64,000 nt of DNA from Ectothiorhodospiraceae bacterium (GCA_019651095.1 BOXR01000005.1:4992-68991); one strand, 5' to 3'; counted from the stretch's first letter, positions 1-64,000 are shown. The notes: generated by a model from the letters alone, not told the origin. Numbers and translations are program-made.

Positions 1-1099
1 AAATACCCGTTTCTAAGACTTGAGCTAATAAAAAAACTCAACCAAAACCTGGGCTTGAGATTTCAAAAAATTAACTTAAAATCTACCCGAAATAATTATT
101 TTTAAAAAAATGGTAAATGGGTGACAGAACGACTGGGAAAAAAAAACCCGGTTTTTAAAAGTTAAATTCAGAATATGTATCATTGATGAAAAAAGTAAAA
201 TTAAGACAGACTTAAATTATCTTCGAAAAAATTATAATGTCAAAATTTATTATTAAATCAATTAAAAATAAAACTTAACCATATTAAATGTTTCAAAGAA
301 ATAAGACAAATAGTTTTTTCTAAGTGATGGGGATATTGGAATAAAACCCAAAGCCCGGGGATGGCTAGTCACGGGGTTTCATGAATCAACTGTCTCTAGG
401 GCTGAAAAATTTGTACAAACTCCTAGAGGGATATGAATTAAAAATTTTTTTTTCATTTTGAACTTTTTACTGATACTGGAACAATATTTTAAAAAGTTTT
501 TTAAAAAATGATCGAGGAGTGCATTAAAGAAGAAAACAAAATAACCTTTGAGTGATAATGAGTTTAAAAAATTTTTTACTTAAAAAGGTTTTCAGTAGCA
601 AGACGAAAGTTACTAAATACAGAGAGAAAATCAATATCCAAACTCAACACAAAGAAAAAGAAATCTGATGATTAAAATTAAATTAGGGACCCCACGTATC
701 CGTGAAGATATTTAAAAAGACAAAAAAAAATCCTAGAAAAGATTTCTGATCCCCCTAGTAAGCCTTCAGGGGGAATGGGAATGACATTTTAAAAAGCTGT
801 ATGATCGAGAAAAGCGGGGGTCGACATCTTTGGAAAAGGAGTTGCGATCCCCATGCACGAATTGATACATTGAGTATCCATTCCATCAATTATAATATTG
901 GATGAGCCAGTGGAATTTGATAACATAGATAACCTAGATTGATATAATTGTATCTATTATTGTTCCTAAAATAACTATATAATCATTTAGAATTACTAGC
1001 TCTTTTTCAAAGCTTGATGACCTTCGTGGAAAAATTTAAAACAAGCGCGTAATAGTTCTCAAATTATAAAATTTTCCCAGACAACCTAGAGTTTATCAA

Positions 1100-1640
1100 A
1101 TGAAAATAGGTATTTTATTTAACCCTAGTGACATTGGTAAACAATTATTTCTGACTGCAACCTCAATCTTTGGGAAAAATCCATTTCAATTGAATTATTA
1201 TCTATTGATAATTATGATCAACCCAGTGATGTAAAAAAGTTGCCGATAAATATGTGAAATTCCTTGATAATGGAGCATGTTCTAGTACTAACAGATATTA
1301 TTGGGAAATACACCATCAAATATTACCTCCATAAATCATGAAAAAAATAGCGGTTGGGTTGAATCTATCCATGATTCTCAACGATTAATTACCGAGGATT
1401 CACCATCAAACAATCGGCGCTAGAAGGCGGCATTCAAAAAGTTTCAAAATATAGATGATCAAAAAAAACTTAGATTCTAAATAAAAGGACTTCCGCCAGG
1501 CCAAAGTTGTATCAACAGCAAATGAGTTTGAACGACAATCATCAAAACCCAAAGGGTGGAAAAATGCGATGCAAGAAATAAATGAAACACTTTTGTTATC
1601 ATCTCAGGGCTCAAGAATAAGTGGAAATTAAGGTATGACG
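1100..1640 (+). pseudogene. Remnants of PTS components: EIIA(Man-family)-like start 'MKIGILFNPSDIGKQLF' and an HPr-like fragment 'FRQAKVVSTANEFE'. Broken by multiple stops and frameshifts.
   Basis: Own translation of the + strand. Short HPr-like motif (PAAKLV..A..F) at ~1500-1560. No ORF >60 aa on this strand. Position immediately upstream of ptsI. Confidence 0.3.
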
Positions 1641-3403
1641 AAGGATGCAATGAAATCAATTGAGGAACTATTTAACAATAAATTTATAACAAAAAAGAGT
1701 ATTATTTTCACAGGTGATGGTGTATCACGAGGAATATGCATTGGGCAAGCAATCGTCGTATATAAGGACAATATTGATCATGCGCCATCTTTTATAGTAG
1801 AGAATCCAGGTTAATAAAGAATCAAAAAATGTTTTAGACGCAATAAATAAACTTAAAACAGAATATAAAAAATCATCTTCGAAAATAAAAAATAATCCTG
1901 CTATAACAAAATTAATGAATAATACAATCAAGTTTTGTTGATGATAAAAGTTTCAAAGAGAGTGTTCTTAATAAGATAAATAATCAGCAATTCAGCGCAA
2001 GTTGGGCTATATCCTCTGAGTACTATAGTATGAAAAAGTCCTTCGAGGATATCGAAGACAAATATATTAAAGAGAGATTAATTGATATTAAACAAATGAT
2101 TATCAGTCTACTAGAACTCCTTCGATCTAGAAAAAAGTTAGATATTTTCAGCAATAACACTATTGAAAATAAAATCATTATAACTGATGAAATAACACCT
2201 AAGGATATTATTGATATTCATCATAGTAAAGGGCTGGGAGTTATAACATCTCATGGAAGTCGCTCTTCCCACAGCGCAATTTTAAGTAAAAGTTTGGCAC
2301 TTCCTATGTTGGTGAAGGTAGAATCCTCCATCAATATTATTAAAGATGGCGACAAACTTATTATGGATCCTGAAAATCAAATAATAATAATCAATCCTGA
2401 TGAAATTGAACTAAAATATTTTAAAAAAATTCAATCAGAAAACAACTCATTAATAAAATCTTTCAGAAAAACAACTAACAAAAAAGCAATTACTAAGGAT
2501 CGAATAAAAGTAGATGTAATGTGTAATCTTGAGCTTTCAGAAGAGGTAAAGCTTTTAAATGATAGTTCCGATGGAGTGGGTTTATTCAGGACGGAGTATC
2601 TCTATATGAACCGAAATGATTTGCCCACGGAACAAGAACAATATCAAGCTTACAGTAAAGTTTTTAAAAAAGTAAATAATAAGCCTGTGACACTAAGAAC
2701 ACTAGATATCGGTTCTGATAAAGAAGTATCTGAAAATATGAAAGTAGGCCAAGTTGCAAAAAATCCTGCCCTAGGCTTAAGAGGCATCAGATATAGCTTG
2801 TATGAAAAAAATCTTTTTAAAGTCCAAATAAAGGCTATGTTGAGAGCTGCAAAAAAAGGAAAACTTAGAATATTGATACCGATGATCACCACGCTTGACG
2901 AAATCAAAAAAGCTAAAGAACTTATTGATGAAGCGAAAGCTGAACTTATAAAAGAGAAAAAGTCTTTCAGTCATAAATATGAAGTTGGCATTATGATTGA
3001 GGTACCTGCGAGTGCAATTCAGTCAAATGTACTATGTAAACATGTAGATTTTATGTCAATTGGAACTAATGATCTCGTTCAGTACATTCTAGCTATTGAT
3101 AGAATTGATGATGAGGTAGCAAGTTTATATGATCCTACTAACCCAGCTGTATTGCAATTGGTAAAACAAGTTATACAGACATGCAATAAGTCAAAAATAG
3201 ATATCACAGTATGCGGAGAGATGGCAGGTGAGAAAATATATACTAAACTTCTACTAGGTCTTGGTCTGACATCTTTTAGTATGCATCCACAAGCAATACC
3301 TGAGATTAAAAATCTTATAATGCAAACTGATACTAAAGCACTTAAATCAAAAATAAATGCTATCTTAAAATGTAATGACTATGAAGAGATTACAGTTGAT
3401 TGA
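1636..3403 (+). pseudogene. ptsI: Phosphoenolpyruvate-protein phosphotransferase (PTS Enzyme I). The C-terminal 457 aa is intact (2030..3403). The first ~120 codons are split across three frames.
   Basis: ORF 2030..3403 carries EI motifs (GSRSSHSAIL, LGLRGIR, SIGTNDLVQY). Upstream 'MTKDAMKSIEELF..FTGDGVSRGICIGQAIVV' (from 1636) is EI N-terminus in another frame, ending in a stop at ~1813. A second frame switch precedes 'YSMKKSFEDIEDKYIKER'. Confidence 0.65.
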
Positions 3404-3439
3404 ATCTCTCTAGTTTTTACTCGAGGACAATAAAAAATC

Positions 3440-5360
3440 TATAAGTGCCATAGAGCTGTAAAGCTATTATGAGCTTGTTGCCAGACTGCACTATATTGAG
3501 AATCTATTATTGTTTCATCAATTTGCTTCTCCTCTGTGCGCAGGTAGCAATGAAGAAATATCGCCTTTTCTGTAACTTTTGACATTAAATTCATAGTAAC
3601 CTGAAAGCTTTTAAATACTTTTTCTCTCTTCATTTTCTGCTCATCACCCATTAGCCCAAACATCGTTGTTACAACATGGCTCCATCAACAGCAGAACCGG
3701 TATTTCCTAATTCAACATTTTCAAAATTTATCAGTGTTATTTATCGGTTCATACCATTTGGACAGATATTTTAAGTTTAAATAAAATTTTGATGTTTTAT
3801 TATGAGTTGAATTTTGTTACCATTCAACCCGGCAATTGTAATTGTTAAATCATCCCTTTTTATCTCGGAGGGTTTTGATATCGCTGCATTGACATGGATG
3901 AAACAATTACACAAACCATTTATACGGAACGATAAATTCTTGCAAACATTTTATCTCATCATGGGTTTTTTCCCATCATTATCAAATCAACCATCCCGAG
4001 AGTACTTTGGCGTGTCAGATATACCCTCCCTCTTTTAATGGTTGATCTCTGAAAAAAAAATTGCATGCCCCCAAATTTATACATCGGTCTCAAATGAGAC
4101 TCTGGTTCTTTTTAATTTTTTTTAAAAATCATAGCCAAAGTCCTATTAACATATGTCTTGGAAAGAATTTTTTATCAAATTTTTATACCAATATTTGTAT
4201 AATTCTTTAAACTTGGAAATTAATATCATTAATGACTTGAAATCTCTCTTATTCATATTTTCATTATAAGCCTTAATTATATCAACAATTTTTAAAAAAC
4301 TTTTCTTTCATATCAAAGGCGGATAATCTTATGTTTTTGTTTAGAACATTAATTACCAACCTTTGTCTAATGCTTTTAACAATCAGTACAATTTTTTTTA
4401 AGCTCATCCTATCATAATCCAAAAAAAATTTCTGAAAAAGCCTTTAATTTTTGCTTTGCCATATTCCTGCATAAATTTGTAGGGTATAAAGCTGACATAA
4501 CTGATCCTCAAATTCAAGAAATTTTTTTCCAAAAGATTTTTTAAGGGAAATTTCCCCCGAATGTGACCATGATTCCGCTGTAAAAAATTGCTTCCCCTCC
4601 AACACCCCAAATTTGGGAAATCCATTACCAAGAGCTTTTCTACCATGACAACTCGGGAGTTCCCCTATGTTGATAACCAAACCATCACCCCGTCCCACAA
4701 AACCCGACTGAACCTCTCTATCATAGAAAATATTTTGTTTATTGCAGATTTCCCTTACTTCTTGAAGATTGCTTTGTCACAGGAAAAATTCCGCCCCCCA
4801 CCTTTAATGGTTCAAAAAGAATTGCGATACTCATCATGATTTTAAAAAATTCTTTTTGGCTTAATTTATTAAATTCAAATCTAAGAGCCGTCCAAAAGGT
4901 CCAAATGGGCATGAGAAGTGTGCGATGTTCCCCATGCCCCATAGTCCCTTCCTAAGTTTTGCATTACTAAAATTTTGGGTTTATCCTATCATGACCTATT
5001 TTCTGCAATTTTAATGCGCCTCAAAAAGATTCTGCCCGGTTCAAAAAAAAACATTTCCCTTCTTAGTTGACATATCTTTTTGCAATTTTTTGTCCAAAAA
5101 GAAATGCATTGGAAGTATGAATCAATTTTGCGACTGTTTTGACTGTTTTGCTTTATGGGGTGAGTGACCCAAGCTTGTAACTGCTAAACCACGGTATCAA
5201 AATACTGCTTTCCCTCAGATCATATAAAATAAATTCCTTCCCCCTTGTAAAGGTAACTTTTCCTATTTAGGTAGGCATGATTTTGCTGGTCATAATCTAC
5301 ATTCTCGCACGAAAAGAGTAATTCTATATCAAATTGTGAATAAAGCTAGCTGTTAATAAA
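3440..5360. other. Roughly 1.9 kb with no long ORF on either strand, only 60-85 aa fragments. Likely decayed gene remnants downstream of ptsI.
   Basis: The six-frame track shows only short overlapping ORFs. Homopolymer-rich sequence. One fragment has a GHGEH motif that could be a metallo-beta-lactamase-fold remnant. Confidence 0.4.
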
Positions 5361-5443
5361 TAATGCATTTTGATTATATTTTTGTGTATTTTTGGTGCAA
5401 TATCCCTAAAATGATGAGGTTAACGTTAAATTATAGGGGAAAA

Positions 5444-6483
5444 ATGAAGAATCTATTAAGTGCACTTGCGCTATTATTTTTCCAGTACAGCATTTTCTGG
5501 TGGACAAGGATGAGTGATTCGCAAGGAAACAGTATGTCAGCAGCCAAGGCATCTTCAGGGGTACATTTTTATGGAAGGCTTTACATTGGATATGATAGCA
5601 CTACCGGTGATACGGCTAGATTAGATGATGGCGGCAATAAAAGCAGACTTGGTCTTAAAATCAAATCGGGAATATTGTTGGTAACCTAGAATATAAATAC
5701 GATATTGGTGATGGCACAAGTGGTGCAGGTGCCAACTGTGGAACTCATCAGCAAATGGATGTCAAACATTTGATCTTCATGTCGGTAATTTAGGTTTTAT
5801 GACACCACTCGGTTACATTGGTGCAGGTACTTATGAAGCTCCTTATAAAACTATGGGGATGTTTGATGAGAATATGGATACAGCCATAGCCCTGAATTCT
5901 CATGGCGGCTTTAGTCAAGGCCAAGGTGGTATCGCGGGTAACTTTGAAGGTGCAATAGCATATCATGCCATGATGGGGCCACTTGAAATTGGTTATATGT
6001 ATGCTGCAACAGACAACACAGCAAATGATGTTACCAATACAGACCGTGGTGATTATTCAATTGGTGTGACAGTCAAAGACATGTTACTAAATGGTTTAAC
6101 TTTTGGATACGCAAGATATCATGACGATGAAGTATCTGGAGCAGAAGGCGAGAATAATGATAAATTTTTTGCCTCTTATCAAGTTATGCCGAACATGGGT
6201 GTATTCTTGTCTTTAGAGGATCTTAGCGTGGTAAATACCTTTATTGCCTCCAGTGGAACCGATGGAAAGATTAATACTTATGGCATTCATTACTCTTTGG
6301 GTATAGCAGATATTCAGCTTGTAAGTGCTGAAGGGATTCTGATGGTGCAGCTAACCAAGATTATCAAACACGCAGCATCTCTGCTAAGATTAATCTTAGT
6401 AAGAATTCAGACATTACATTGGATACACTAAGCAAGACTTTGACGAAGATGGCTCAGACTTTAGTACATCCGGCATGGTCTAA
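5444..6483 (+). pseudogene. Outer-membrane porin (Gram-negative porin family) in two fragments plus a shifted C-terminus. Paralog of the intact porin at 31768..32862.
   Basis: 5363..5689 has a signal peptide 'MKNLLSALALL' and 'FYGRLYIGYDST...SRLGLK'. 5799..6431 continues beta-barrel-like sequence. Similar to the intact porin ('KLYGRLWAQYSNEKTDGS', 'GRIGFKGKS'). Confidence 0.55.
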
Positions 6484-6512
6484 CACATAAATTCTAATTT
6501 TAGAAAAATGTA

Positions 6513-6552
6513 AAAACCTAGCCTGAAATGATTTCAGGCTAGGTTTTTTATT
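6513..6552. terminator. Bidirectional Rho-independent terminator: hairpin CCTAGCCTGAAA-tgat-TTCAGGCTAGG flanked by an A-run and a T-run.
   Basis: Perfect 12-bp stem at 6517-6543, followed by TTTTTTATTT on + and preceded by AAAAA. Sits between convergent genes. Confidence 0.7.
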
Positions 6553-7169
6553 TATACAATATAAGGGGTTATAGACGCCAGCGAGACTAGTCCAGGATGA
6601 TGCGCTCCGCCCATGAAAAGTAACATAGGGATACTAAGCACTGTGTTGGTCCTAGAAGCTAACAAAGCTGTTTTCTTGGCTTGAGCAATCTCATCAGCTG
6701 AAGCCTCTACCATGCCTAGTACCTTCTGTTGATTTGGCCAAATGAGTACCCAAACATTAAATAACATAATTGTTCCTAACCATGCTCCTGCACCTATTAC
6801 AGAGCTATAACCTCCAGCAAAAGTAAATGCATCTATAAACTGGCCATGATGACCTAGATACGCCGCACCGGTTAACCATGTTACTACTGCACCCCACCTG
6901 AACCACAATAAAGCCAAGGGGGCAACGTACTTCCCTATCGCAGCTGGACCTGGTTCCTTGTCAGCTGTCGCTTTCGCCATTGCAGGCACTTGAACGAAAT
7001 TAAAATAATATAGCAGTCCAATCCATGTTACACCTGATAGGTAATGTAGCCACCTTATATACCCCTCAGCTTCAATAGGAATGCTGCCATCAGCTAAAAT
7101 CATTATGAATACAATTGCTAGTACAAAACCAGAAATTATAGTACCTTTTATTGATAATAAAGGATTCAT
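6552..7169 (-). CDS. Polytopic membrane protein of unknown function, with a weak HemJ/PuuD-N-like motif.
   Basis: 205 aa with about 5 hydrophobic helices. Motif 'IRWLHYLSGVTWIGLLYYFNFVQVP' resembles the HemJ-family signature. No firm assignment. Confidence 0.35.
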   Translation of the reverse strand: MNPLLSIKGTIISGFVLAIVFIMILADGSIPIEAEGYIRWLHYLSGVTWIGLLYYFNFVQVPAMAKATADKEPGPAAIGKYVAPLALLWFRWGAVVTWLTGAAYLGHHGQFIDAFTFAGGYSSVIGAGAWLGTIMLFNVWVLIWPNQQKVLGMVEASADEIAQAKKTALLASRTNTVLSIPMLLFMGGAHHPGLVSLASITPYIV

Positions 7170-7251: not shown

Positions 7252-9019
7252 GTGTGTGGAATTTGTGGAGAATTTAAATTTATCTCAAAGAGTTTTGATA
7301 ATGAAAAGCTCAATAATTTAATGGATTCTATCTCCGCAAGGGGAAATGATTCTCAAGGAAGATACATGGATGATGATGTTTTTCTTGGTCATCACAGACT
7401 TGCAATAATCGATACGAGTAATAAGTCTAATCAGCCAATGCAAGTTGGAAAATATGTAATTGTTTTTAACGGAGTAATATTTAATTATCGTGAGTTGAGA
7501 AGTGCTCTTATTAAAAAGGGGCACTCATTCTCATCTTCTGGTGATACTGAGGTAATTATTCGATCTTATATAGAATATGGCTCTGATTGTGTAAATTACT
7601 TAGACGGAGTATTCGCATTTTGCATTTATGACACAGAAGATAAAAAACTTTTTCTAGCAAGAGATCGTATTGGTATAAAGCCTCTATACTTTCTCCATGA
7701 ATCTGGACAATTGTACTTTTCATCTCATATGAAAGGAATTCTCAAGAATATGGTTAAAAGAAAAGTTAATCCAATTGCACTCAATTACCAATTTACATTG
7801 CATTCAGTCGTGCCAGCACCACACACTATAATCGATAATATTCAGAAATTAGAACCTGGTTATACAATTACAGTTCATAAATCAGGGAGAATAGATAAGA
7901 CTAGATATTTTAATATCGATGAAATTCAGCTATCAAAATATAATACTAATGAAATATATGAAAATATATCTTCACTACTAGCCGCCGCAATTGAAAAAAG
8001 AATTAGTGTTGCTGACGTTCCTGTGGGTATCTTGTTATCAGGTGGCTTAGACTCAAGTCTAATTACTGCGATATCTAAAGAATATAAAAATAACTTAAGT
8101 ACCTACTCCATAGGTTTTGAGACAATAAATAAGGAGGAGGGAAATGAATTCTACTACTCTGATCTAGTTGCTAATGATTTAAAAACATCACATGAAAAGT
8201 ATAGTGTGACTAGCCTTGATTTATTAAACAGTTTAGATGATGTTATCATGAGTATGAGTGAGCCCATGTTTAGTCAGGACTCATCAGCATTTTATTTATT
8301 AGCTAAAAATGTCTCTAAATCAGCCAAGGTAGTACTGAGTGGTCAAGGTGCTGACGAGGTCTTTGGTGGTTATTTCTGGTATGAGAAAATTATGAGGGAA
8401 AAAGACCTTAGTAGTATAGATACTCTCATAAAATATTATTTTGATAGATCATATGACAATTATAAAACAATTATACATAGTGACTATGTCTCTGAAAACT
8501 ATGCATCAAACGACATAGAATCTAGGCTAAAACAAATGGATCCGAGCTTGAGCATTTTAGATAAAAGTTTTCCGCCTAGAGCTCTCCATGTTTATTATTG
8601 ATGATCCGGTAAAAAGAGTAGATAACATGACTATGTCTCATTCTCTTGAGGCTAGAGTTCCGTTTTTAGATATTGATCTCATTAGTTTTATGCTCTCTGT
8701 TAAAAGTGAAAAGAAAATAGAAAATGGCGAAAAATGCTTTTTTAAAAGAGGTCTCTAAAAAATATTTGAACAATAAAATAATTAACAGGAGAAATTCTAC
8801 TTTCCTGTCCCACCACTTAAAATAATTAAAGATAAATTCTTTGACTATTGCAGAAAAACACTGTTATCAGAATCTGCTTTAGAGAGAAATTTATACAACA
8901 CGTCATATATTAATAAAATTCTTGAAAAACCAAATGAACACTTTACAAATCTTAATGGAAATGAGTTGTGGCACTTTACCTTACTAGAAAGATGGTTACA
9001 ACTAAACATTGATCAGTAG
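7252..9019 (+). pseudogene. asnB: Asparagine synthetase (glutamine-hydrolysing) AsnB. The N-terminal 449 aa is intact; the C-terminal third is split by at least 3 frameshifts.
   Basis: Ntn start 'MCGICG', 'HRLAIIDTS', 'SGGLDSS'. After the stop at 8601 the sequence continues as 'DDPVKRVDNMTMSHSLEARVPFLD', then 'KKYLNNKIINRR', then 'TFPVPPLKIIKD...LLERWLQLNIDQ', each in a different frame. Confidence 0.7.
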
Positions 9020-9059
9020 TCATACAAGTTATATAATTTTTACATAATCAGGAGAAACT

Positions 9060-9374
9060 ATGTCAGCACTAGATAGAATAAAAAAACAAGTAGAAGAAAG
9101 CCCTGTAATACTCTACATGAAAGGTACACCTCAAATGCCAATGTGTGGATTTTCTGCAAGAACGGTTGAAGCTTTAAAAAGTTGTGGTAAAGAGTTCGCT
9201 TATGTAAATGTAATTTTAGATTCAGAGATAATGCAAGAATTACCAAACTTTGCTGACTGGCCAACATTCCCTCAGTTATACATCAAAGGAGAGCTTATTG
9301 GGGGATGTGATATTACACTGGATCTTCATCAATCTGGTGAACTTCAAAAAATGATTGATGATGCAGTTAGCTAA
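9060..9374 (+). CDS. grxD: Monothiol glutaredoxin (Grx4 family).
   Basis: 'CGFS' active site, 104 aa, typical Grx4 length and motifs (WPTFPQLYIKGELIGG). Confidence 0.85.
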   Translation: MSALDRIKKQVEESPVILYMKGTPQMPMCGFSARTVEALKSCGKEFAYVNVILDSEIMQELPNFADWPTFPQLYIKGELIGGCDITLDLHQSGELQKMIDDAVS

Positions 9375-9998
9375 CCAGCTGGTGTATTAATTGCATGAAT
9401 AATGCCCCAATAATCGAAGATATTTACCTTAGATATTGACTGAACATTAAGTTTCGCGTAAGCATTAAATTCTGAAAATGGAAAGTATGGCCTCCAGCCA
9501 AGATATTTACTTACAGGCATGAGTCCTTTTTCTAAAATTTTCATAAATTTACTATCAGTCTCAAAACTAAAATGATTTACCAAATAAATGTCACCATTTG
9601 GTTTACAGACTCTTTTCATTTCTTTGATTAATAGGTTCGGATTCTGCGTCACCGAAACCACATACATCCAACAACTTTATCAAAAGAATTATCCTCAAAT
9701 GTAAGTTGCTCCCATTCATCATAATTACATTCTTATTTTGAAGATTATGTTTTCTTATGTTTTTTTTTGCCTTTTCAAGCATATCAGGAGATATATCAAT
9801 TCCAGTTACTTCTGTTTCCATCGGATAATATTTGTAAGAGGTGCCCGTTCCTATTCCTATTTCAAGAACCTTGTCAGTTGGAGTGCACTCCATCATGCTC
9901 ACAAGCTTTTTTTGGCCCGGTCTAAAGATTTGACCAAATGTGTAATCATAAAATCCTGAGACTCGTTTATATGATTTTATTATAGACTTATCATCCAA
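9371..9998 (-). pseudogene. Class I SAM-dependent methyltransferase split by one frameshift (9603..9998 plus 9371..9667).
   Basis: SAM motif 'VLEIGIGTGTS' in the upstream piece. The downstream piece continues an MTase fold. The two pieces overlap in different frames around 9603-9667. Confidence 0.55.
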
Positions 9999-10033
9999 TA
10001 TGCTATCCTAAAGTATAGAATTAATAGGCCTAA

Positions 10034-10378
10034 TTGTACCACTTTATGAATGGAATTATCAAAACTTTCACAGATATTATGCTCTTTAAGAAAGGCCCGC
10101 AGGATCTGCCGTCCAGCAAGACTCTTTTGAATGTTTTTATTATAGCTAATCTTCTAATAAGTTTTATACCAAACGATGTTAACTATAATTTGGGTATTTC
10201 CTTCATTACATCACTGATATATGTGGGTGCCAGCCTTTTTTTCATTCAAACAGTTCTAAGTGTAAAAGAAAACATGTCATCGACAACTGGATATAGGATT
10301 CGTTATGTTCAATCTGCCACATCAATACTTGGTATTCATGCATTTATCGGGTTAATAACAAGTTTAATATTTTTTTAA
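10034..10378 (+). CDS. Hypothetical small membrane protein.
   Basis: 114-aa ORF with 2-3 hydrophobic segments. No recognisable motif. Confidence 0.25.
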   Translation: MYHFMNGIIKTFTDIMLFKKGPQDLPSSKTLLNVFIIANLLISFIPNDVNYNLGISFITSLIYVGASLFFIQTVLSVKENMSSTTGYRIRYVQSATSILGIHAFIGLITSLIFF

Positions 10379-10556
10379 GCGGAGCTTCAGATTACATAAT
10401 CATAGTTATACTTATCGCAACACTATACTCATGGCTAATATACGGATATATTTTTAAACAAACTCTTGATTGCACAACTTTTATGGGTTTATCAATATCA
10501 TTCCTTTACAGCATGATAATCGGCTTCATGCTGATATTAGTTCTCTCCCTTCTTGT

Positions 10557-11875
10557 ATGAAAGTTCATATTCTAGGTATTTCCGGAACCTTCATGTCAGG
10601 TATAGCTATTCTTGCCAAAAAAAAGGGATATGAAGTAACAGGCTCTGATACCTCTTGTACGATCCAATTAAGTCTATTTTAGAGAAAGAAAATATATCTG
10701 TGATTAAAGGACATAAAATCAAAGATATCAAAGATAAAGATTTAATTATAATCGGTAATGTAATGTCACGAGGAAACCCGATAATCGAGTATATCTTAAA
10801 AAACAATATAAATTACATCTCAGGACCACAATGGTTGTATGACAATATCCTTAAACATAAAAAAGTAATAGCTGTAAGTGGCACGCATGGAAAAACTACA
10901 ACTACTGCGATGATTGTTCATATTATGAAAAAAAATAAAATGAACCCGAGTTATTTAATTGGCGGATCTCCAAAAGGTAATTTTAAATCAGTTTCTCTTA
11001 CTAGCTCAAAATATTTTGTTATTGAAGCAGACGAATATGACACTGCGTTTTTTGATAAAAGATCTAAATTTATCCATTACAATCCCTTTCTAGCTGTTAT
11101 AAATAATATTGAATATGATCATGCTGATATTTTTGAAAATATAGATGAAATAATAAAATCTTTTAGTCATATGATTAGACTTATACCATCTGACGGTACA
11201 ATAATTATTAATAAAAATGATCATAATATTAAAAAATTACTTCAAAAAGGATATTGGTCGAAGTTAATAACTGTAGATTCAAAAAAATCGTCAGGGGATT
11301 TTAATTTGATAAAGAAAAAACAATATATGCTTAAATTCAATAATAAAAACTTTTTATTGCCAGTGAATATCATAGGAAAGCATAACTACATAAATGCTAT
11401 AACTGCAATTGCAGCATGCAGAGAACTCAAGGTTCCAATAAATACTCAAATTAAGGCTCTATCAAGTTTTAAAGGCGTCAGTAAAAGAACAGATCTAGTT
11501 TGTGAGATTGATGGAATTAAAGTTTTTGATGATTTTGCTCATCATCCAACTGCCATTAAATCTTCGATTAACTCAATTAAGGACACATTCACAGGGAAAA
11601 GGCTTTTAACTATATTCGTACCTGGCTCAAATTCGATGAGACTTGGGGTACATAATGATCAACTTGTACCATCGCTGAAAAAATCAGATAGAGCGCTAGT
11701 TTTAACCAGATTCAAGCCATTAAAGAGATTAATGGGAAATAACATTAAAATAAATGTTATTGAAACTGAAGCTCAAATAAGAGAATATCTCGACAAGGAA
11801 AATAATTTCGATATTGTTCTCGTGCTTTCAAACAGGAATACTGAGAACATATTACGATACATTAAAAATGGATAG
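10557..11875 (+). pseudogene. mpl: UDP-N-acetylmuramate:L-alanyl-gamma-D-glutamyl-meso-DAP ligase (murein peptide ligase Mpl). One frameshift after codon ~33.
   Basis: 'MKVHILGISGTFMSGIAILAKKKGYEVTGSD' in frame 1, then 'YDPIKSILEKE...VSGTHGKTTTT' in frame 2. The junction 'acctcttgtacgat' is explained by loss of one T from a TTT run. Confidence 0.7.
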
Positions 11876-17667: not shown

Positions 17668-18418
17668 GAATATTTTTATCTTTTTGCAAAATACTTGCTA
17701 CTGCATCTAGTACATAGATTAAGTTACTCGGTTCATTATACCTCTTATTTTCAATAGGGTAATTAAATGGCATTAAATATGGAGAATCTGTCTCTATCAT
17801 AAGCTTATCAGATGGCACGTAACTTATTAAATCATGGAGATGATACCCTCTATTTGGATCCGTTATCCAGCCAGTGATTCCAATGTAACATCCTAGATCC
17901 AAATAACTTGATAGACTCTTTTTATCACCAGTAAAACAGTGGACAACAATATCCTCTACTAGATGACTATATTCTTTTAAGAGTATAATAAAATCATCAT
18001 GAGCATCCCTTTCATGAAGGAACATTGGTAAATCAATTGATGTTGCAAGTTCAAGATGTTTTGTAAAACAATTTATTTGATCATTTTTACTTGAATAATT
18101 TCTTTTATAATCAAGTCCACACTCTCCAATAGCTTTAACATAGTCGTGTTCGCATAATTCGAGCATTTTATCGATATGACTATCTTTAAAATCCTTTGCA
18201 TTATGTGGATGAAAACCAACTGTTGTATATAAAAGGTCTGGCTCTCGATCAATCAGTTCTTTTGCTTGATAAGTGTCGTCTATATGCGATGAAGTGATGA
18301 TTATTTTACGAATATTATTTTCTTTTGATTTAGTGATAACTTCATTAAAATTTTTTGAAAGCTGACTATCCAGAAGATTTGCGCCAATATCAAATAGAGG
18401 CGTAACAGAATTAGCCAT
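17621..18418 (-). CDS. TatD-family metal-dependent hydrolase/DNase.
   Basis: TatD motifs ('GFHPHNA', 'ECGLDY', 'HCF'). 265 aa. Confidence 0.8.
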
Positions 18419-19301: not shown

Positions 19302-19307
19302 GGAAAT

Positions 19308-23335: not shown

Positions 23336-23535
23336 TGATCATATAGTCATATAAACTTTTACTTAAACGCTTTACTGTTTTTTAGCAGATGCATTGTCGT
23401 ATCTTATTTAAGTAATAATGACCTATTCAAATATGAAGTACGTTGTGCATTTAATTCATGCGCTTTGGGTAATGAATATATAGCTTTAGGATGACGCTGT
23501 TGCCCTAAATTTTTTAATCTAGATGAGGATATATT

Positions 23536-25308: not shown

Positions 25309-25323
25309 TAGAATGGCATCTAA

Positions 25324-49856: not shown

Positions 49857-52835
49857 TTAATTGAGGATAGGTTTAAATGACTGGGTCACTCTAATTTTAG
49901 GATTTTTCCATGGACCTTTTATCGAATACTCTATTCCTGCCAGTTTATTGGTATCAAGACCAAACTCTTTAAGAAGTCTATCATAAAAAATTGAAGCGGC
50001 AGCGCCAATCGGTCCTCCCAAAACAGCACCAGTAACTAAGCTGGTAGATGATAGATCAGGTATAAATATTAAAGTTTGATCATGAGTCTCATTGACCAGA
50101 TTTGATTTTCCTGAGAGTCTCATTTCACCAAAACTGCCTAGGATAATCATTTTTTTAGTGTCTGCAACTCCATTATCTAAACTCACATCTGATTTTAAAT
50201 CATCAAATCGTAGGCCTTTAGAAAAAAAGTCTGAGAAATCTAAAGAGAGTCTTTTAGGAATTGATGATATGCTGAAAAGACCTAAAACTTGTCCGATAGC
50301 TTGTGTTCCCTTGTCTAGCTCGTTAATTTGACCGTTCTTTATAGTGAAATTGAGATCGCCTGTAGCATTTGAAAATGAAAAATCCTCTAATGAGCCTTGC
50401 CATTCTGCTTTTAGTTTAGCATCTAAGTTCCCACCCTTGAGAGCACCTGGATACCCGAGTCCTGTTAGAGCTTGACCAAGGTTATCACTGCTAATATTAG
50501 CAAGAATTTCTGTCTTTTCATTTTTATCTCTGAACCACTTTCCAGAGGATTGCATCTTTAGATACAAGTTATTAAAGCTCAGCTTATCAATTGAAATATG
50601 ATCAACTTGAGGCGACAAGATGATATGTACATCATCTAGCACCGCTCTTGATGTTTTTACATGTTTAGACTTAATATCGATTTTAGGAGTTGATTCTCTT
50701 AAACCATCACTCTTTAAAAGACGTGTATCTATGAATTCAAATGATCCAATAGTAGTGTTAGTAGAGTCTTGATCATTAGGTATTTTTAAAAAACCCCTTG
50801 CTATCGGTGATGATATATTCGTATACGTGAATTCTTTATCAGTCTTAAATTTAAACTCATGTTCCTCATAATTTATAGACATCGGATATGATATCGGGGG
50901 ATGATGCTGATATCTAAAACTAAAGTTTTTTCTATCCTTGCTGTTTTTATTGAATGGCTCTATAAAATCTAGTGTCACACCACTTAGATCACTAGTAACA
51001 TAAGATGAAATCTTATTTTGAGAATAATCATAGGTCATAACTGATTTAATTTTTGATCTTCCTTCAATTGATTTCCTCATGTCAAAGTAAGTACTCAGGG
51101 CTTCAGTATCAAAAAAGCCGGTCGATGATAAAATAAACCTATGAGATGTACTGCTTGATCTTGTCATAATTCTTGATTTAAAGTTCATATCATTAACTGA
51201 AAGGTTGAAATTATCAGTACTAATAAAATTTGAGGAAGAATATAATTTTATTTTAGGAGATGAAAGATAAATATTATCGGATACATTTATATAGACATCC
51301 TCAAACAGAGATTCAGTAAAGACAACTCCTCTATGGTAATAAACTTTTATACTTCCTTTTCCATCATAATCTTCGCTGTTTGTTAGATTGTTGGTGAAAG
51401 GAGATATGAGTTTAGGTAGCTTGGAAGAAACTTTCAGCTTTATTGATGGAAGCTTTGATGTTTTATGCCCAGAAAAAGATAGATTATAATTCTGATCGTT
51501 TGAAAAATTAGAGCTACTAAAGTATATTGATTTTCCTTTAGAAATATATGATATTTTGCCCGAAACATTATTCAGTAAATTCCTATCTTCCTGGCTAATT
51601 GATAAACTATCAATATTGATCAGTCCGCTAAGTAATGTTCCATATACTCTAGCATTGATATTATTTAAGGTATATTTATCATCAAGTTGTATTAAGGAAT
51701 CTACAAGATATAGACTGAAATAATCTAGACTGCCTCGATTGTTAAGGTGCACTTGGATATTTTTGATATTGCTTGAGGCAAGCTGAGCTAATAAATCAGA
51801 CTTTTTTACACCAAATGCTGGAAGAAATTCTTTGACCACCTTATTTCCATTCTTTTTAATAAATATTTTTATGTTCTTTTTATTATCTTTACTTAGGACA
51901 ATTTTATTGTTGCTGATATTTTTATTATTAATAACATAGTTCATCCTCATCAGACTCAATGTCTCAGATTCATTATCTTTGACAAATAAGATGTCACTAT
52001 TAATATTTTCAAGAGTAAAAATAGACTTTCCAACATTCATACTTAGTCGATCGGTAGATATATTACCAGATGCTCTTATGATCTTAGTATCAAGCAGATT
52101 AAGCCACACTCTCAGTGATATCTTATTAGACTTTAAATTTTGCATTTGATTGGGCAGTATAGAATATGGAATTTTCATTGAGTTACCACTTATGAATACT
52201 TTACTCTCAACTTTGTCGTCCTTGAATTCACCTCGATAAACTAAAGTGATAGGATTAGGACTAGCTTGATGTATGAAGTTTGAGTGAATTTTAATAATAT
52301 TGTTTCTATAGCTAGCAAAAAGACTCTTAGCATTAAATAACAGCTTTTGATTACTACTTATTTCCGTTATCCGTATATCAGAATTATTTAATATTATTTC
52401 GGGTATATTCGTTTTTATAACCGGATTTGATTCAACAGAGAGATTCTTCTTATTTATGAATAATTTATTTTTACCATATCTTAGATCTAATTTTGTGTTG
52501 TTAATGACAATTTTATCAATTGATACATTTTGATTTTGAAGACTACTAAAAGTATTTATGTGTATCTGACCATTTGGTATTTCTAAAAATACTCTATCTT
52601 GCTCGTCACTCATATATATATCTTTCATTTGGACTACTGGCTCGAAGCCAATCCACTTGATACCTAATGATTTTATACTTATATCTGCATTAAATGATTT
52701 TTTTAATTCATTCTGGATTAACAATGTAATCTTTGTTTTAAGATCTTCTGAATTTTCTGAGTAGACTATAATCGCAGAGAATAAAGTAAGGAATATAATT
52801 ATTAGATTGAGAAATGCTTTTATTGCTCTAGGCAT
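49857..52835 (-). CDS. yhdP: AsmA-like YhdP-family protein (inner-membrane-anchored, envelope lipid-transport family).
   Basis: 992 aa with an N-terminal TM anchor, a repetitive beta-rich body and the C-terminal AsmA-like region 'SGKSNLVNETHDQTLIFIPD...GIEYSIKGPW'. Synteny with CN-hydrolase and tldD as for yhdP. Confidence 0.65.
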   Translation of the reverse strand: MPRAIKAFLNLIIIFLTLFSAIIVYSENSEDLKTKITLLIQNELKKSFNADISIKSLGIKWIGFEPVVQMKDIYMSDEQDRVFLEIPNGQIHINTFSSLQNQNVSIDKIVINNTKLDLRYGKNKLFINKKNLSVESNPVIKTNIPEIILNNSDIRITEISSNQKLLFNAKSLFASYRNNIIKIHSNFIHQASPNPITLVYRGEFKDDKVESKVFISGNSMKIPYSILPNQMQNLKSNKISLRVWLNLLDTKIIRASGNISTDRLSMNVGKSIFTLENINSDILFVKDNESETLSLMRMNYVINNKNISNNKIVLSKDNKKNIKIFIKKNGNKVVKEFLPAFGVKKSDLLAQLASSNIKNIQVHLNNRGSLDYFSLYLVDSLIQLDDKYTLNNINARVYGTLLSGLINIDSLSISQEDRNLLNNVSGKISYISKGKSIYFSSSNFSNDQNYNLSFSGHKTSKLPSIKLKVSSKLPKLISPFTNNLTNSEDYDGKGSIKVYYHRGVVFTESLFEDVYINVSDNIYLSSPKIKLYSSSNFISTDNFNLSVNDMNFKSRIMTRSSSTSHRFILSSTGFFDTEALSTYFDMRKSIEGRSKIKSVMTYDYSQNKISSYVTSDLSGVTLDFIEPFNKNSKDRKNFSFRYQHHPPISYPMSINYEEHEFKFKTDKEFTYTNISSPIARGFLKIPNDQDSTNTTIGSFEFIDTRLLKSDGLRESTPKIDIKSKHVKTSRAVLDDVHIILSPQVDHISIDKLSFNNLYLKMQSSGKWFRDKNEKTEILANISSDNLGQALTGLGYPGALKGGNLDAKLKAEWQGSLEDFSFSNATGDLNFTIKNGQINELDKGTQAIGQVLGLFSISSIPKRLSLDFSDFFSKGLRFDDLKSDVSLDNGVADTKKMIILGSFGEMRLSGKSNLVNETHDQTLIFIPDLSSTSLVTGAVLGGPIGAAASIFYDRLLKEFGLDTNKLAGIEYSIKGPWKNPKIRVTQSFKPILN

Positions 52836-56041: not shown

Positions 56042-56927
56042 ATGAAGAGCGCTAAAAAAAACAAGGTTGGATTTATTGGTTTGGGCATTATGGGAAAGCC
56101 AATGGTCATAAACTTAATTAAAAATGACATTGAGGTTTATTTCTATGCGAGGAAGAAACGAATAATAGATGAAATATCAAAGATTGGAGGCAAGTTTATT
56201 CCAAATCCTAGTGATATTTCAAAATTCACAAAAATCATCCTGACGAACCTCCCAAATACAAAAGATGTCGAAAATATTGTCATTGGTAAAAATGGAATTA
56301 TCAACATCTACAAACGGCTCTATTGTAATAGACATGAGTACAATATCACCTGAAGGCACAAGATATATAAATGATAAATTACGAGAAAGAAAATCCTATC
56401 TCCTTGATGCTCCTGTATCTGGTGGTGAAGCCGGCGCAAAATCTGGGAAATTATCAATTATGGTTGGCGGGGATAAATCAGCTTATCTCAAAATTAAATT
56501 TATTCTGTCGGTTCTTGGCAGCAAAATAACATATTTAGGTAAAAGTGGATCAGGTCAAATTTGCAAAGCTTGTAATCAAATCCTGGTGGCGAAAACTATC
56601 CAATCTATTAGTGAAATTATCACTATTGCAAAGAAGTCAGATATAAATCCGATGATAATTAGAGAAGCTCTTCTCGCTGGATATGCTAATAGTAAAATTT
56701 TAGAGGTTCATGGAAAAAGAATGATTACGTCTGACTATAAACCTGGTTTTAAGCTATCTCTTCATCATAAAGATCTCAAAATAGCTAAAAATTTAATCAA
56801 AAACATGGGCTTAAATCTAAAAGGATTGAATCAAGTTCAAAAAGCAATGAGTTGCGCGGAAAGAGAAGGTCTGTCAGACTGCGACTCCTCTGTTATCCAC
56901 ACTATATTAGAAAAAACTTATAAATAA
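56042..56927 (+). pseudogene. NAD-binding 3-hydroxyisobutyrate / tartronate-semialdehyde dehydrogenase family, split by one frameshift near 56300.
   Basis: 'GFIGLGIMGKPM' Rossmann start in ORF 1. 'APVSGGEAGAKSGKLSIMVGG' catalytic region in ORF 2, in another frame. Confidence 0.65.
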
Positions 56928-56938
56928 TTATTAGTGTT

Positions 56939-57363
56939 TTGACATTAATATATTATAATACCTGCATGGAAGACAAATACGAGAGTATATATAGAGACTT
57001 AAATGTAACCCCTACAAAACAGAGGGTAGATTTAGCCCAGCTGATATTTTCAAAGAAACAGCATTTTACTGCCAGTGACCTTATAGCAATGGCTGACAAA
57101 AAGAAATTGCATATTTCTATGGCAACAATATATAATACGCTATCTTTATTGGAGGATAAAGGAATGTTAAAGACAATAAATATAGATAATGAATTGAAGT
57201 TCTATGATACTAATCTAGATAATCACCATCATCTTTACAATACAACCATGAGCACTTGACTGATATTGATCATGATAAGATTGTTTTTGCAGAACTCCCA
57301 GAGTTACCAAAAACTCTCCAAATCGAGAGCACAGAGGTATTAATTAAGGCAAAGAATAGATAA
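56939..57363 (+). pseudogene. Fur-family transcriptional regulator with a frameshift before the C-terminal dimerisation region.
   Basis: N-terminal winged helix 'TPTKQRVDLAQLIF...ISMATIYNTLSLLEDKGML' then 'HHHLYNTTMST*'. The C-terminus continues in another frame as 'HEHLTDIDHDKIVFAELPE...'. Confidence 0.55.
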
Positions 57364-57433
57364 TAACTTAATTTGTCTCAAGATCGCCCTTCCAAGCTTT
57401 TTTTAACAGACTCGTCCAGTACGATTTCCTTGT

Positions 57434-57808
57434 TTACTCTGGGTGATCAACGCCTATTCTCACTTCAGAACTTGAAATGAAATCAGCTATGTCATCTTGC
57501 TCAAGCTGAAAACGTAAGAAATGAACTGCAGATGTTTTCTCGTCGGTGCTCCTGTCTAAATCTTCATCTGCATAAGCTATAATTTTTTTATCACCAGAAG
57601 ATAACCAAATTTTATTTTCTATATCATGGAGCTTGAACAACATCTCTCTTCTCACTTCAACATCAGGAAACATTATCAACATTGTTGCTTTAAGATTTGT
57701 CCCATCAGGTATAAGGGGGTTATATGCATCGATCTCTTCTTGAATTTCCTTCTTATTGAAAATTTTTTCTATCCTCAGCATTTCCTGTACTTGATATTTG
57801 ATAGTCAT
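57434..57808 (-). CDS. DUF3501-family protein.
   Basis: 124 aa. Sequence and position immediately downstream of a CCG-domain Fe-S protein and rubrerythrin, a commonly seen module. Confidence 0.5.
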   Translation of the reverse strand: MTIKYQVQEMLRIEKIFNKKEIQEEIDAYNPLIPDGTNLKATMLIMFPDVEVRREMLFKLHDIENKIWLSSGDKKIIAYADEDLDRSTDEKTSAVHFLRFQLEQDDIADFISSSEVRIGVDHPE

Positions 57809-57944
57809 ATAATCTTCAAATATAAGAACAATATTATCACCAATATTGATTGTCCTGTTTTTTTTATGACTAATTAATTCTTTTTTATTGAGTCTCTCTT
57901 AGAATCATATTCTTCAAGTGAGAGAAGGTCTTTAGGCTCTAATT

Positions 57945-59272
57945 TCATGCTCTTATTCCATACGCTTTCTTAATTAAACTGATCGGATGCTCAGGCTCTT
58001 GTATGTTCCCTAGTGAATTTTCAATATGATGAGCGGCCAATGAGCAGTCACTTGTAAAACTATCAAAATTGGCATCTTTAAATGACTTGGTTATAGGTCT
58101 AGCAATTTTGATAGCAATATCATGTGTTTCTAGCTTTACTCCGTATGTTCCATCATGACCAGAACACCTTTCGATTGCATTGACGGTAGTACCAGGAACT
58201 AGTTCAAGAATTTTTTTTGTTAGCATGCCAAAGTTTTGTACTCTCTGATGGCATGCAACTTGATACGATATGTTGCCAAGCTCTGTATTAAAATCTGTTT
58301 TCAATATACCCTCATCATTCAACATATTTAAAAATTCAAAGGGATCTCTAAATGATTTGGAGACTTTCAATAAATCTTGATTATCAGGGAAAAGAAGTGG
58401 CAGCTCTTGTTTATACATCAAAACGCACGATGGAATTGGCGCAATAATCAGATATCCTAGATCAGTGAATTTTTGAATTTAGGCAGGTTCTTTTCCATCA
58501 TCTTACCAACTTCCTCGATGTTTCCTAATTCTAACTTTGGCATCCCGCAACAGTTGTCGTCGGTTATCATTTCAACAGTTACATCATTATGTTTTAGAAT
58601 ATCATAGAAGTCTTTGATCACTCCGGGCTCGTTAAAGTTATGATAGCAAGTAGTAAAAATTGCTACCTTGAATTTTGAAGTATTAGATTGATTGGTTAAG
58701 TTGAGCTGTTTCGCAGTTTTTGATACAAATTTAGGCAACTTTGCGTTTCTATGGACTCCAAACTTCTCCAAAAGTTTTCTGAAAACTTTATTATTGTTAA
58801 AGAAATTTACAAATCCAGAGACAAAATACCTAGAGAACATTTTGCCTAGCATATCTGTAGAGGCAAGAACTTTGTCACGAAAAGATATTTTTTTCTTTGA
58901 ATTTTTAATTGCCTTACCTCTTAGCATTAGGTGAGGAAAATCAATCTCCCATTCATGTGGTGGAACATATGGACACTTTGTCATGAAACATAAGTCACAC
59001 AAATAGCAATGATCTACAACTGAATCGAAGTCAGTATATGAGACTCCGTCAACTTCAAAAGTTTCAGATTCATCAATGAGATCAAATAAAGTAGGGAATG
59101 AATTACATAAACTCACACATCTCCTGCAACCATGACAAGCGTCTGCGACTCGTCGTAGCTCTTCCTCATATTTCTCTTCATTTAAGAAATCGGGGTTTTT
59201 CCAATCTATAATATGTCTGGTTGGTTTTTCAAGCCCACCTTCCATGCTGGGTTTTAAATTTGCGTTGTCCAT
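57945..59272 (-). pseudogene. Heterodisulfide-reductase-related Fe-S protein (2x4Fe-4S ferredoxin motifs plus two CCG cysteine-rich domains), split into two ORFs near 58440.
   Basis: 'CHGCRRCVSLC' and 'CYLCDLCFMTKCP' ferredoxin motifs. 'TTCYHNF...DDNCCGMP' and 'VACHQR...ERCSGHDG' CCG domains. 58457..59272 and 57945..58421 are collinear but not in one frame. Confidence 0.6.
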
Positions 59273-61179: not shown

Positions 61180-61214
61180 AAATATTCACACAAGTTATAT
61201 TATAATATGTATGT

Positions 61215-61910: not shown

Positions 61911-61911
61911 A

Positions 61912-62382
61912 TTATTTCAGATTGTATCTTAGTTTCTGTATCAATTTCCTAACCAATACTTTATCGATCGCATTATTTGTGATTTTTTCTTGTTCGCTCG
62001 TAATTTGCATGCGTGATTCATTAAAATCATAGGAACCAGAGGCTTTCAAAGTCCCTGTCACGCTATTATTTTCTGAGCTTATGATTTCATAGTCTAATGA
62101 TTTGCTAATTTCATATTCATCTACTCTCCCTGAAGAATTTACAGAAAGCTGTCTCTTTCGACTTGATATAGAATTAATTTTAACTACAGGATATGTATTG
62201 TAATCTTGAATCTGTAAGATCACTGATGAACCAAGTTTTTGTGAGAGCATATTTGAAATCGATGTATGGCCGTTAGAAATAATTATTATGTTTTCTAAAC
62301 CATCAACATTCATTGATCCCCTAAGTTGATAACCGCATGATGATATCATCGTCATAATTACAAAAAGATAAAGAATTCTCAT
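61912..62382 (-). CDS. lptE: LPS-assembly lipoprotein LptE.
   Basis: Lipobox 'ISSCGYQLRG'. 156 aa. Immediately downstream of leuS. Confidence 0.75.
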   Translation of the reverse strand: MRILYLFVIMTMISSCGYQLRGSMNVDGLENIIIISNGHTSISNMLSQKLGSSVILQIQDYNTYPVVKINSISSRKRQLSVNSSGRVDEYEISKSLDYEIISSENNSVTGTLKASGSYDFNESRMQITSEQEKITNNAIDKVLVRKLIQKLRYNLK

Positions 62383-64000
62383 TTGATCACAAAGTTTATA
62401 AGCTTATTAGGTACATAAATAGTCTTTAGGATATCAGATTCAGCTAGGTACTGTTTTGTTTTTTGATCTTCTAGTGCAATTTTCAAAACTTCCTCCTCAT
62501 TGAGATCAGATTTTGCATATATTCTGCTCCTGAGTTTACCATTAATTTGTACTATTATTTGAACTTCTTGATCAACATCTACTCCCTCAATTTTATCTGG
62601 CCATTCAGGGTTACTAGCTTTTTCGGCTTTTATTTCAGACAAAATAGTAAAACAGATATGTGGAGTAATAGGATATAGCAATTTAGCCATAGTAGAGATA
62701 CATATTTTCGCGGATTCATGCGATATTGACTTATCATCAATAGATCTAGACAAACTATTGAAAAACTCCATTACAGCAGCTATGGCTGTGTTATATGATT
62801 TTCTTTTGAAAAGATCTGTTGAGACTTTATCAATTGTCTCATTATGTTTAATTAAGATTTTATTATCTTTATCTTTTGGAACATCGTAGGAATTACGTAT
62901 CAGGTATGAAAGCTTCCAAAATCTTTTTAAAAATTTATAGCCTCCCTCAATTGCTGAGTCAGACCATTCGAGGTTTTGTTCAGGAGGAGCTGCAAATAGA
63001 ATGAAAAGTCTTATTGTATCGGCACCATATTTTTTTATTATATCGTCTGGATCAATCGTATTGCCTTTTGATTTTGACATTTTTGCTCCATCTTTAAGTA
63101 CCATCCCTTGTGACAGTAGAGATACGAAGGGCTCATCATCATCTACTAAACCTTCATCTCTTAAAAGTTTATAAAAGAACCTTGCATACAACAGATGTAA
63201 TATTGCATGCTCTATACCACCTATATATTGATCAACAGGTAGCCATGATTTGAACTTTTTGTTAAACATTTCTTTTTCATTATGCGGATCAAGAAATCTT
63301 AAGAAATACCAAGATGATTCAAAGAATGTATCAAATGTATCAGTCTCTCTTACAGCTTTTTTGCCTGTTAGAGGACAAGTAATATTTTTCCATTCATTAT
63401 TTCTATCTAACGGGTTTCCTTCACCATCTAATTTAATGTCTTTGGGTAACTTTACGGGTAGATCTTTCTCTGGAATAGGATAAACTGTGCCATCCTCATG
63501 ATAATATACAGGTATAGGACACCCCCAATATCTTTGTCTAGATATACCCCAATCTCTAAGCCTATATGTGACTACCTCCTCCCCGAGGTTATTATTCTGA
63601 AAAATTTGTTATCTTTTCTTTAGCAATATCTGATTGTAAACCGTTAAATTGAGAAGAATTAATAAGGATGCCTTTTTTCGACATTGGGAAGATTGTTCAG
63701 TCTTTTTGTCGTCAATTACTTTGATAATTTCAAAATCGAATTTTTTCGCAAAATCAAAATCTCGAGGGTCATGCGCGGGACACCCATTACAACACCTGTA
63801 CCGTAATTATCAAGAACATAGTTGGCAATCCATATCGGAATTTTTTTTGAGTAATTGATGTAAACAATATTTACCTGTGAATACGCCGTCTTTCTCCACT
63901 TTAGCAGAAGTTTCTTCAGAAAGTTTTTGTTTTTGATACTTAGTTATGAACTTTTTAATACTTTTATCTTTTTGTGATAGGTCTGTAGCTAGATCATGAT
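62379..64000 (-). CDS. leuS: Leucyl-tRNA synthetase, C-terminal ~540 codons. It continues past the window edge. One frameshift at a homopolymer at ~63597-63605.
   Basis: 'WLPVDQYIGGIEHAILHLLY', 'KMSKSKGN'. Upstream of 63269 the frame stays open ('LRDWGISRQRYWGCPIPV...TDTFDTFFESSWY') until a stop, and 'LINSSQFNGLQSDIAKEKITNF' continues in another frame. The two frames are reconciled by removing one A from the A5 run. Confidence 0.85.

Follow-up and report, generated by a model that had tools for sequence, protein, structure and literature searches.

Does the DNA analysed here carry genes that are truly broken, or are the breaks a fault of the assembly? The stretch is 64 kb (guanine plus cytosine, GC, about 34%) of a contig assigned to an Ectothiorhodospiraceae bacterium (GCA_019651095.1, BOXR01000005.1:4992-68991), and this whole stretch is referred to as the window. 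A preliminary description of the sequence had noted an excess of frame-interrupted genes, at least 20 of about 65, and had offered genome erosion, rescue by slippage and homopolymer sequencing error as explanations. Judged from comparison with related contigs, the frame breaks are almost certainly leftover consensus errors of a long-read (Nanopore-type) metagenome contig that was partly corrected with short reads, and not pseudogenes, because the insertions and deletions (indels) are private to the window, biased towards deletion, enriched in homopolymers and absent from independent assemblies, and because their removal restores the genes. The same high confidence covers the organism, taken to be a marine planktonic gammaproteobacterium of low GC (about 34%) that is free-living and abundant and has intact genes; SAR86 and GCA-002705445 are candidate groups for it.

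The window carries an ordinary gammaproteobacterial housekeeping set: the groups rpoN-ptsN-HPr-ptsI, argF/argD, asnB, mpl, ilvD and an mtkAB-mcl cluster, followed by a btuB-like receptor, nrdAB, mgtE, a pst-pho cluster, tldD/pmbA, yhdP, holA, pyrD and leuS. Gene names were taken from Pfam matches on related contigs and from NCBIfam matches; mtkA reaches 627 bits against the malate--CoA ligase beta model NF010647 (cut-off 604), and pstC passes its own NCBIfam equivalog model. Exact-protein look-ups with the window PstB, GrxD, malyl-CoA-lyase-like protein and an aldehyde dehydrogenase brought up 34 contigs from the same population, and these share 95–99% identity with the window across most of its length. 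Their sources are Tara Oceans and reef-seawater plankton metagenomes. The short-read or otherwise independent references among them are L099 (an Illumina scaffold), L104 (NCBI GCA_902521725.1) and L105-L114 (ten Tara Oceans/JGI/ENA contigs). The sibling contigs, which bear names of the form '<reef>_<n>__contig_<n>_pilon', belong to a Great Barrier Reef project and are called pilon contigs below. When GTDB representative genomes were scanned with NrdA, nothing above 67% identity appeared among the matches listed. Indels were called from MAFFT alignments, with intact orthologues of the related contigs mapped onto the window, and the spectrum statistics refer to the 64 events past position 5400.

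Frameshifting indels interrupt 28 of 66 genes

Orthologue mapping places at least one frameshifting indel in 28 of the 66 window genes, so the excess first noted is real and had been understated. Every gene listed at that time as broken carries frameshifts: ptsI (3), a porin paralogue (8), asnB (3), a methyltransferase (MTase) gene (2), mpl (1), mtkA (3), an ABC ATPase gene (1), the btuB-like receptor gene (3), nrdA (3), nrdB (2), mgtE (1), pstC (7), pstA (3), AGCS (1), a hibadh-like gene (2), a fur-like gene (1), a CCG Fe-S protein gene (1) and leuS (6). The junctions cited there coincide with called events (10650 with 10657, 19675 with 19684, 20045 with 20007 and 20017, 22133 with 22126, 30600 with 30631, and 63600 with 63599, where A7 becomes A5). 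The genes described as clean (pstS, pstB, phoU, phoB, phoR, yhdP, the nrdA core, ilvD and tldD) are clean. Six genes had been missed and have no open reading frame (ORF) left, namely rpoN, ptsN, EIIA-man, HPr, argF and argD; mtkB, nhaA, a DUF3501 gene and a 171-aa ORF, likewise absent from that list, are also hit. The events outside the most damaged left end are distributed as follows.

6334-6550, plus strand: 3' end of porin paralogue 1 and the next spacer; 6 private indels.
8567-8787, plus strand: asnB; 3 private 1-nt indels; 588 aa, intact in L099 and L104.
9045-10657: private 1-nt deletions in a spacer (9045), the MTase gene (9667, 9711), the 171-aa ORF (10369, T8 to T7) and mpl (10657).
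18543-20017, minus strand: mtkB with 2 deletions (net -3 nt) and mtkA with 3 deletions of 1 nt.
22126, plus strand: ABC ATPase gene; 1-nt insertion; 303 aa, intact in all ten short-read contigs (10/10).
23428-24952, plus strand: upstream spacer (2 events) and the btuB-like TonB-dependent receptor gene (3 deletions of 1 nt).
26758-26879, minus strand: N-terminal part of nrdB; 2 deletions of 1 nt.
29718-29977, minus strand: N-terminal part of nrdA; 1 insertion and 2 deletions; 950 aa in 8 of 10 relatives.
30631, minus strand: mgtE; A5 to A4 deletion; 455 aa in all relatives.
36070-36450, minus strand: pstA; 3 private deletions, at G6, A7 and T6 runs.
37164-38058, minus strand: pstC; 6 deletions of 1 nt and a 4-nt ACCC duplication.
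43025, plus strand: AGCS (Na/alanine symporter) gene; 1-nt deletion.
45907, plus strand: 3' end of nhaA; 1-nt insertion.
56305-58469: 8 private 1-nt indels, in the hibadh-like gene (2), the fur-like gene (1), a spacer (1), the DUF3501 gene (3) and the CCG Fe-S gene (1).
59331: intergenic; T6 to T7 insertion.
63599-63856, minus strand: leuS; 6 private indels in 260 nt, including A7 to A5 and T9 to T8.

The indels are private to one assembly

Against the consensus of the 34 contigs, the window has about 226 private indel events, 64 of them past position 5400. None of the 34 contigs shares the allele of a private indel, with a sole recurrence: the A8 to A7 deletion at 38058 in pstC, which is found again in L081 only. 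All genes broken in the window are full length in L099, L104 and L105-L114. The intact lengths in these independent assemblies are 572 aa for ptsI, 353 for the porin, 588 for asnB, 209 for the MTase, 439 for mpl, 390 for mtkA, 303 for the ABC ATPase, 591 for the receptor and 402 for nrdB. In particular, mtkA (390 aa) is intact wherever it is complete among the ten short-read contigs, and the receptor (591 aa) is intact in L109, L110 and L111. Sibling contigs also preserve frames that are broken in the window: nrdB measures 400–402 aa in all siblings compared at its locus, the hibadh-like, fur-like, DUF3501 and CCG Fe-S genes are intact in L091-L094, and leuS (805 aa) is intact in L091, L093 and L094.

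The siblings have breaks of their own. Each of the ten short-read contigs has 0–1 private indels, and the pilon contigs have 0–47, at sites other than those of the window; each pilon sibling has its own private set of split genes. yhdP (992 aa, window 49857-52835) is intact in the window and split at four different places in the four siblings L091-L094 (4/4). Splits in asnB occur in every one of the nine pilon contigs compared at its locus (9/9), at varied positions, and L090 and L083 show indel clusters of their own. Long genes are rarely intact in the pilon sibling assemblies. Orthologous contigs with uninterrupted frames at the break sites were found many times over, and sequencing or assembly error is therefore the only explanation of the preliminary description that survives.

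Indel spectrum and restoration of reading frames

Deletions outnumber insertions 53 to 11 (p = 1e-7, 64 events). Sixty of the 64 events are 1–2 nt in size, one is a multiple of 3, and the largest past position 5400 is 5 nt. Homopolymers of at least 5 nt hold 17 of the 64 events and make up 4.6% of the bases, a 5.7-fold enrichment (p = 3.5e-9; reached in 0 of 10,000 permutations). The event rate rises with run length, from 0.75 per kb in run-1 bases to 17–28 per kb in runs of 7–9. Runs of 1–2 nt nevertheless hold 35 of the 64 events (55%). The homopolymer error proposed at the outset is thus borne out by the enrichment at longer runs, but the label is too narrow, since over half of the events lie in runs of 1–2 nt; the spectrum fits a general deletion-biased long-read consensus error and not a purely homopolymeric one.

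When the 64 private indels are reverted to the consensus, all open frames past about 5.6 kb regain the reference length. The restored frames include asnB, mpl, mtkA, the receptor gene, nrdA, nrdB, mgtE, pstA, pstC, AGCS, the hibadh-like gene, the fur-like gene (132 aa), DUF3501, the CCG gene and, as far as the window reaches, leuS. Reversion fails for a single gene part past 5.4 kb, the 5' end of porin paralogue 1, because this part lies inside the second of two noisy patches described below and also shows real length variation.

The same spectrum bears on whether the frameshifts could be real and be overcome by slippage of transcription or translation at homopolymeric tracts, in the way reported for poly(A) tracts of insect endosymbionts with AT-rich genomes. 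In Buchnera and Blochmannia, transcriptional slippage at poly(A) tracts rescues frameshifted genes, and the window resembles them in its AT-rich composition and in having some breaks at A/T runs. The 17 events in runs of at least 5 nt, the leuS break at an A-run and the otherwise fully functional appearance of the broken genes would all suit such a rescue. However, the window differs from these endosymbionts in that its tracts are too short, most breaks lie off runs and none is conserved between strains. Endosymbiont slippage is efficient only at about 9 or more A/T, whereas the tracts remaining in the window are mostly 4–7 nt and at most 8, and slippage cannot act at the 35 events in runs of 1–2 nt. 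Genes that depend on slippage keep the frameshifted tract across strains, but no frameshift is conserved in the relatives, and many of the genes would need 3–7 independent rescues each. On these grounds the slippage rescue suggested earlier has a negligible probability.

Selection signature and the pstA/pstC cluster

The breaks are unevenly distributed, as first described: the variance-to-mean ratio is 2.74 in 1-kb bins, a value that none of 10,000 random placements reaches. Coding sequence receives 55 of the 64 events in a region that is 96% coding. A case in point, and the best of the earlier grounds for relaxed selection, is pstA and pstC, to which at least six breaks had been ascribed with none in the neighbouring pst and pho genes; we count 10 breaks, and the neighbours are clean. 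That clustering had been taken to argue for relaxed selection, in which case the window would hold real pseudogenes of a recently host-restricted or streamlining lineage, in which frameshifts accumulate where genes are dispensable, as pstC and pstA would be. The significant clustering, the contrast between pstC and pstA, which are hit throughout, and the adjoining clean pst/pho genes, the AT-rich genome (34% GC), and the indel clusters around the pst operon in L090 and L083 are the observations that favour this reading.

The substitutions tell otherwise. In the frame of the reference, 55 genes were read and none has a nonsense substitution; in-frame or large deletions are absent too, and the ratio of non-synonymous to synonymous differences (pN/pS) is not raised, being 0.071 in 22 broken genes and 0.047 in 33 intact genes, low in both alike. 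In pstA/pstC, the window differs from six near-identical contigs by 3–5 substitutions and 9–11 indels. Compared with L082, it has 10 frameshifting indels, 4 synonymous substitutions and no non-synonymous substitution, whereas L082 and L084 differ there by 2 substitutions and no indel. Over a 9.6-kb block around the two genes, the window and L082 are separated by 5 substitutions and 10 indels, and L082 and L084 by 4 substitutions and 0 indels. A ratio of 10 indels to 4 substitutions against L082 is incompatible with mutation under genome erosion, and the clustering loses its force as a sign of relaxed selection. Moreover, essential genes are among the broken ones (leuS, nrdA, nrdB, rpoN and mpl), the lesions are private to one contig save for the recurrent A8 deletion, other samples yield near-identical haplotypes that are intact, and the sibling assemblies break other genes. 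The host restriction proposed with the erosion is contradicted by the relatives, which are open-ocean and reef-seawater plankton and not inhabitants of hosts.

Mycobacterium leprae and Sodalis glossinidius are pseudogene-rich genomes of recently host-restricted bacteria. The window shares with them the many frameshift-interrupted genes and the AT-rich composition, but it differs in that its lesions are private to one assembly and include neither nonsense changes nor larger deletions, pN/pS is not raised, essential genes are broken and the organism appears to be free-living plankton. Real erosion, whose lesions relatives would share, is accordingly an extremely improbable account of the breaks.

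A narrower proposal concerns a small subset of the indels, namely the pstA/pstC cluster and some sites at long A/T runs, which would reflect true heterogeneity within the population of a marine gammaproteobacterium that is abundant and streamlined. Its strains could, for example, lose high-affinity phosphate uptake or switch it in a phase-like manner. Two sibling assemblies also have indel clusters around the pst operon, but near-identical haplotypes are intact and the 10 indels stand against 4 synonymous substitutions, and we consider the proposal very unlikely.

The sibling contig L090 differs from L082 in pstA/pstC (window 35712-38283 equivalent) by 39–41 substitutions and 4 indels, and L086 differs from other contigs by 27 substitutions and 0 indels. 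Either the pst region has several real alleles, or L090 has another poorly polished patch there.

Two noisy patches flank a divergent ptsI allele

The left end of the window holds the genes that have lost their ORFs and consists of two noisy patches separated by a clean segment.

1-2000: noisy patch 1, with the 3' part of rpoN, ptsN, EIIA-man, HPr and the 5' end of ptsI; 13–26 deletion events per 500 bp.
2030-3403, plus strand: ptsI core ORF of 457 aa, between the noisy patches; 0 indels in 2001-3000.
3404-5750: noisy patch 2, with argF, argD and the 5' end of porin paralogue 1; 20–39 deletion events per 500 bp.

Both patches have 10–17% mismatches against every relative. Patch 1 is 1983 nt long compared with about 2293 nt in orthologues, and the measured part of patch 2 (3420-5400) is 1981 nt compared with about 2180 nt; the patches are thus 9–14% shorter than their orthologues, yet contain more homopolymer runs. 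Mismatches in which the window base equals its neighbour, and so extends a homopolymer, amount to 61–62% in patch 1 and 68–69% in patch 2. Seen from the reference side, the same measure is 28–35% over both patches and 34–35% for patch 1. In the ptsI core and in a 12-kb control region, both sides give the same share of run-extending mismatches, about 40%. The smear towards homopolymers in the noisy patches is a basecalling or consensus signature and not a mutational one.

The ptsI core is of another kind. It has no indel, and its comparison with L104 gives a synonymous divergence (pS) of 0.49 and a pN/pS of 0.08; these values mark a truly divergent allele that is held under purifying selection and sits where the population is hypervariable. 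Diversity among the relatives is 4–11% over window positions 1-7000 and 0.1–2.5% over most of the rest, with up to 10% at 25–30 kb. L099 lacks porin paralogue 1 (5444-6497).

Consensus error and real variation

Several observations weigh against consensus error as the whole account. Nine of the 64 events fall in the 3.7% of the sequence that is non-coding, and some of these may be real variation. The platform of the window is deduced from its siblings and error signature, and all indels were judged from assembled contigs. Outside the noisy patches, private substitutions near indels number 6 against 4.7 expected (p = 0.34); complex miscalls, in which substitutions cluster beside indels, were rejected on this lack of co-localisation, and the errors in clean regions would therefore be almost purely indels. 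Finally, the pstA/pstC cluster is not explained by strain heterogeneity. Local strain diversity correlates with private indels in the sibling contigs (rho = 0.44, p = 6e-4), a correlation partly confounded in the divergent 5–7 kb region, where some indel variation is real and the alignment is uncertain, and its relation to the window's own indels is weak (rho = 0.23, p = 0.08). As a cause of the clustering, local diversity was rejected on the very low diversity of the pstA/pstC region (pi about 0.005).

These points leave room for a mixture, in which most indels are errors and a minority are true strain polymorphisms, located between genes, at some long homopolymers and in the porin region at 5.4–6.6 kb. 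The non-coding events, the hypervariability at 5–7 kb together with the missing porin gene of L099, and the real 3-nt indels shared by the divergent strains L083 and L088 suit a mixture. However, the coding frameshifts are all private to the window save that at 38058, and the reversion restores the frames. We regard a mixture as possible but rather unlikely, and it would leave the verdict on the broken genes unchanged.

Likely origin of the errors

We infer the long-read origin of the window from its error signature and from its siblings, which were produced by Oxford Nanopore Technologies (ONT) R9.4 sequencing with metaFlye, Racon and Pilon. Look-ups with four intact window proteins, one of them that of mtkB, matched no exact record in the indexed collections, and the contig of the window was not found there. 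The Great Barrier Reef project assembled ONT R9.4 PromethION reads with metaFlye and then applied three Racon rounds, a Pilon round and a final Racon round; its authors report low-GC taxa as up to 15-fold under-represented in Illumina relative to Nanopore data (PMC13558084). The known behaviour of R9.4 assemblies fits the pattern of the window (Sereika et al.; PMC9262707). ONT R9.4 assemblies with residual indels and the window are alike in their deletion bias, in events of mostly 1–2 nt, in homopolymer enrichment and in genes split into adjacent ORFs that match consecutive parts of one orthologue. In both, errors persist where short-read polishing is weak, and the pipeline siblings behave likewise at other positions. 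The window differs in that over half of its events lie outside homopolymers and in its two patches of about 15–20% noise, which are worse than a typical polished consensus; its own platform and pipeline are deduced.

A coverage-based mechanism may account for both features of the window. The long-read consensus would drop single bases, chiefly in homopolymers, and short-read polishing would mend them only where short reads map. In low-GC plankton, short-read coverage would be thin and patchy, which would leave stretches of 0.3–2 kb unpolished at about 0.3–0.6% indels, and these stretches would be the observed indel clusters. In the two patches with about 15–20% error, short reads would presumably be unable to map at all.

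The breaks are an artefact of a well-known kind and no biological discovery, and their value is as a caution. Taken at face value, the contig would suggest genome erosion, host restriction, loss of phosphate uptake or slippage rescue, none of which is supported. Hybrid-polished Nanopore metagenome-assembled genomes of low-GC plankton can retain about 1 indel per kb as well as patches of raw-level noise, an error level at which about 40% of gene calls are broken. For circular SAR86 and GCA-002705445 genomes, a CheckM2 completeness of about 75% has been reported and was read as underestimation by the tool (PMC13558084). We suggest that residual frameshifts could contribute to the low CheckM2 completeness of these genomes.

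Other features of the window

Two genes of the pst-pho cluster recur in all related contigs. A MIP/aquaporin-family gene (38342-38980, minus strand) is located within the pst operon, with pstS and pstC on either side, and a gene for an ArsC-like low-molecular-weight phosphatase/arsenate reductase (33010-33420, minus strand) follows phoB. With NCBIfam matches below the curated cut-offs, the two may form a Pho-linked arsenate detoxification pair that resembles AqpS plus ArsC. At 18411-21418 (minus strand), mtkB and mtkA are clustered with an HpcH/HpaI-family malyl-CoA-lyase-like gene in a small low-GC marine genome; the malyl-CoA-lyase-like protein scores below every NCBIfam cut-off. Between nrdA and nrdB, a 42-aa ORF (27057-27185, minus strand) is called in nearly all related contigs, and it has no NCBIfam match and no Pfam match on record.

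L083 and L088 share about 95% identity with the window elsewhere, but about 84% at the equivalent of window 24944-25562. This low-identity segment consists of the 3' end of the TonB-dependent receptor gene together with the 5' portion of DUF6580; the remainder of that gene (25563-25773) does not align. The pattern suggests that the segment has been recombined or replaced in these two strains.

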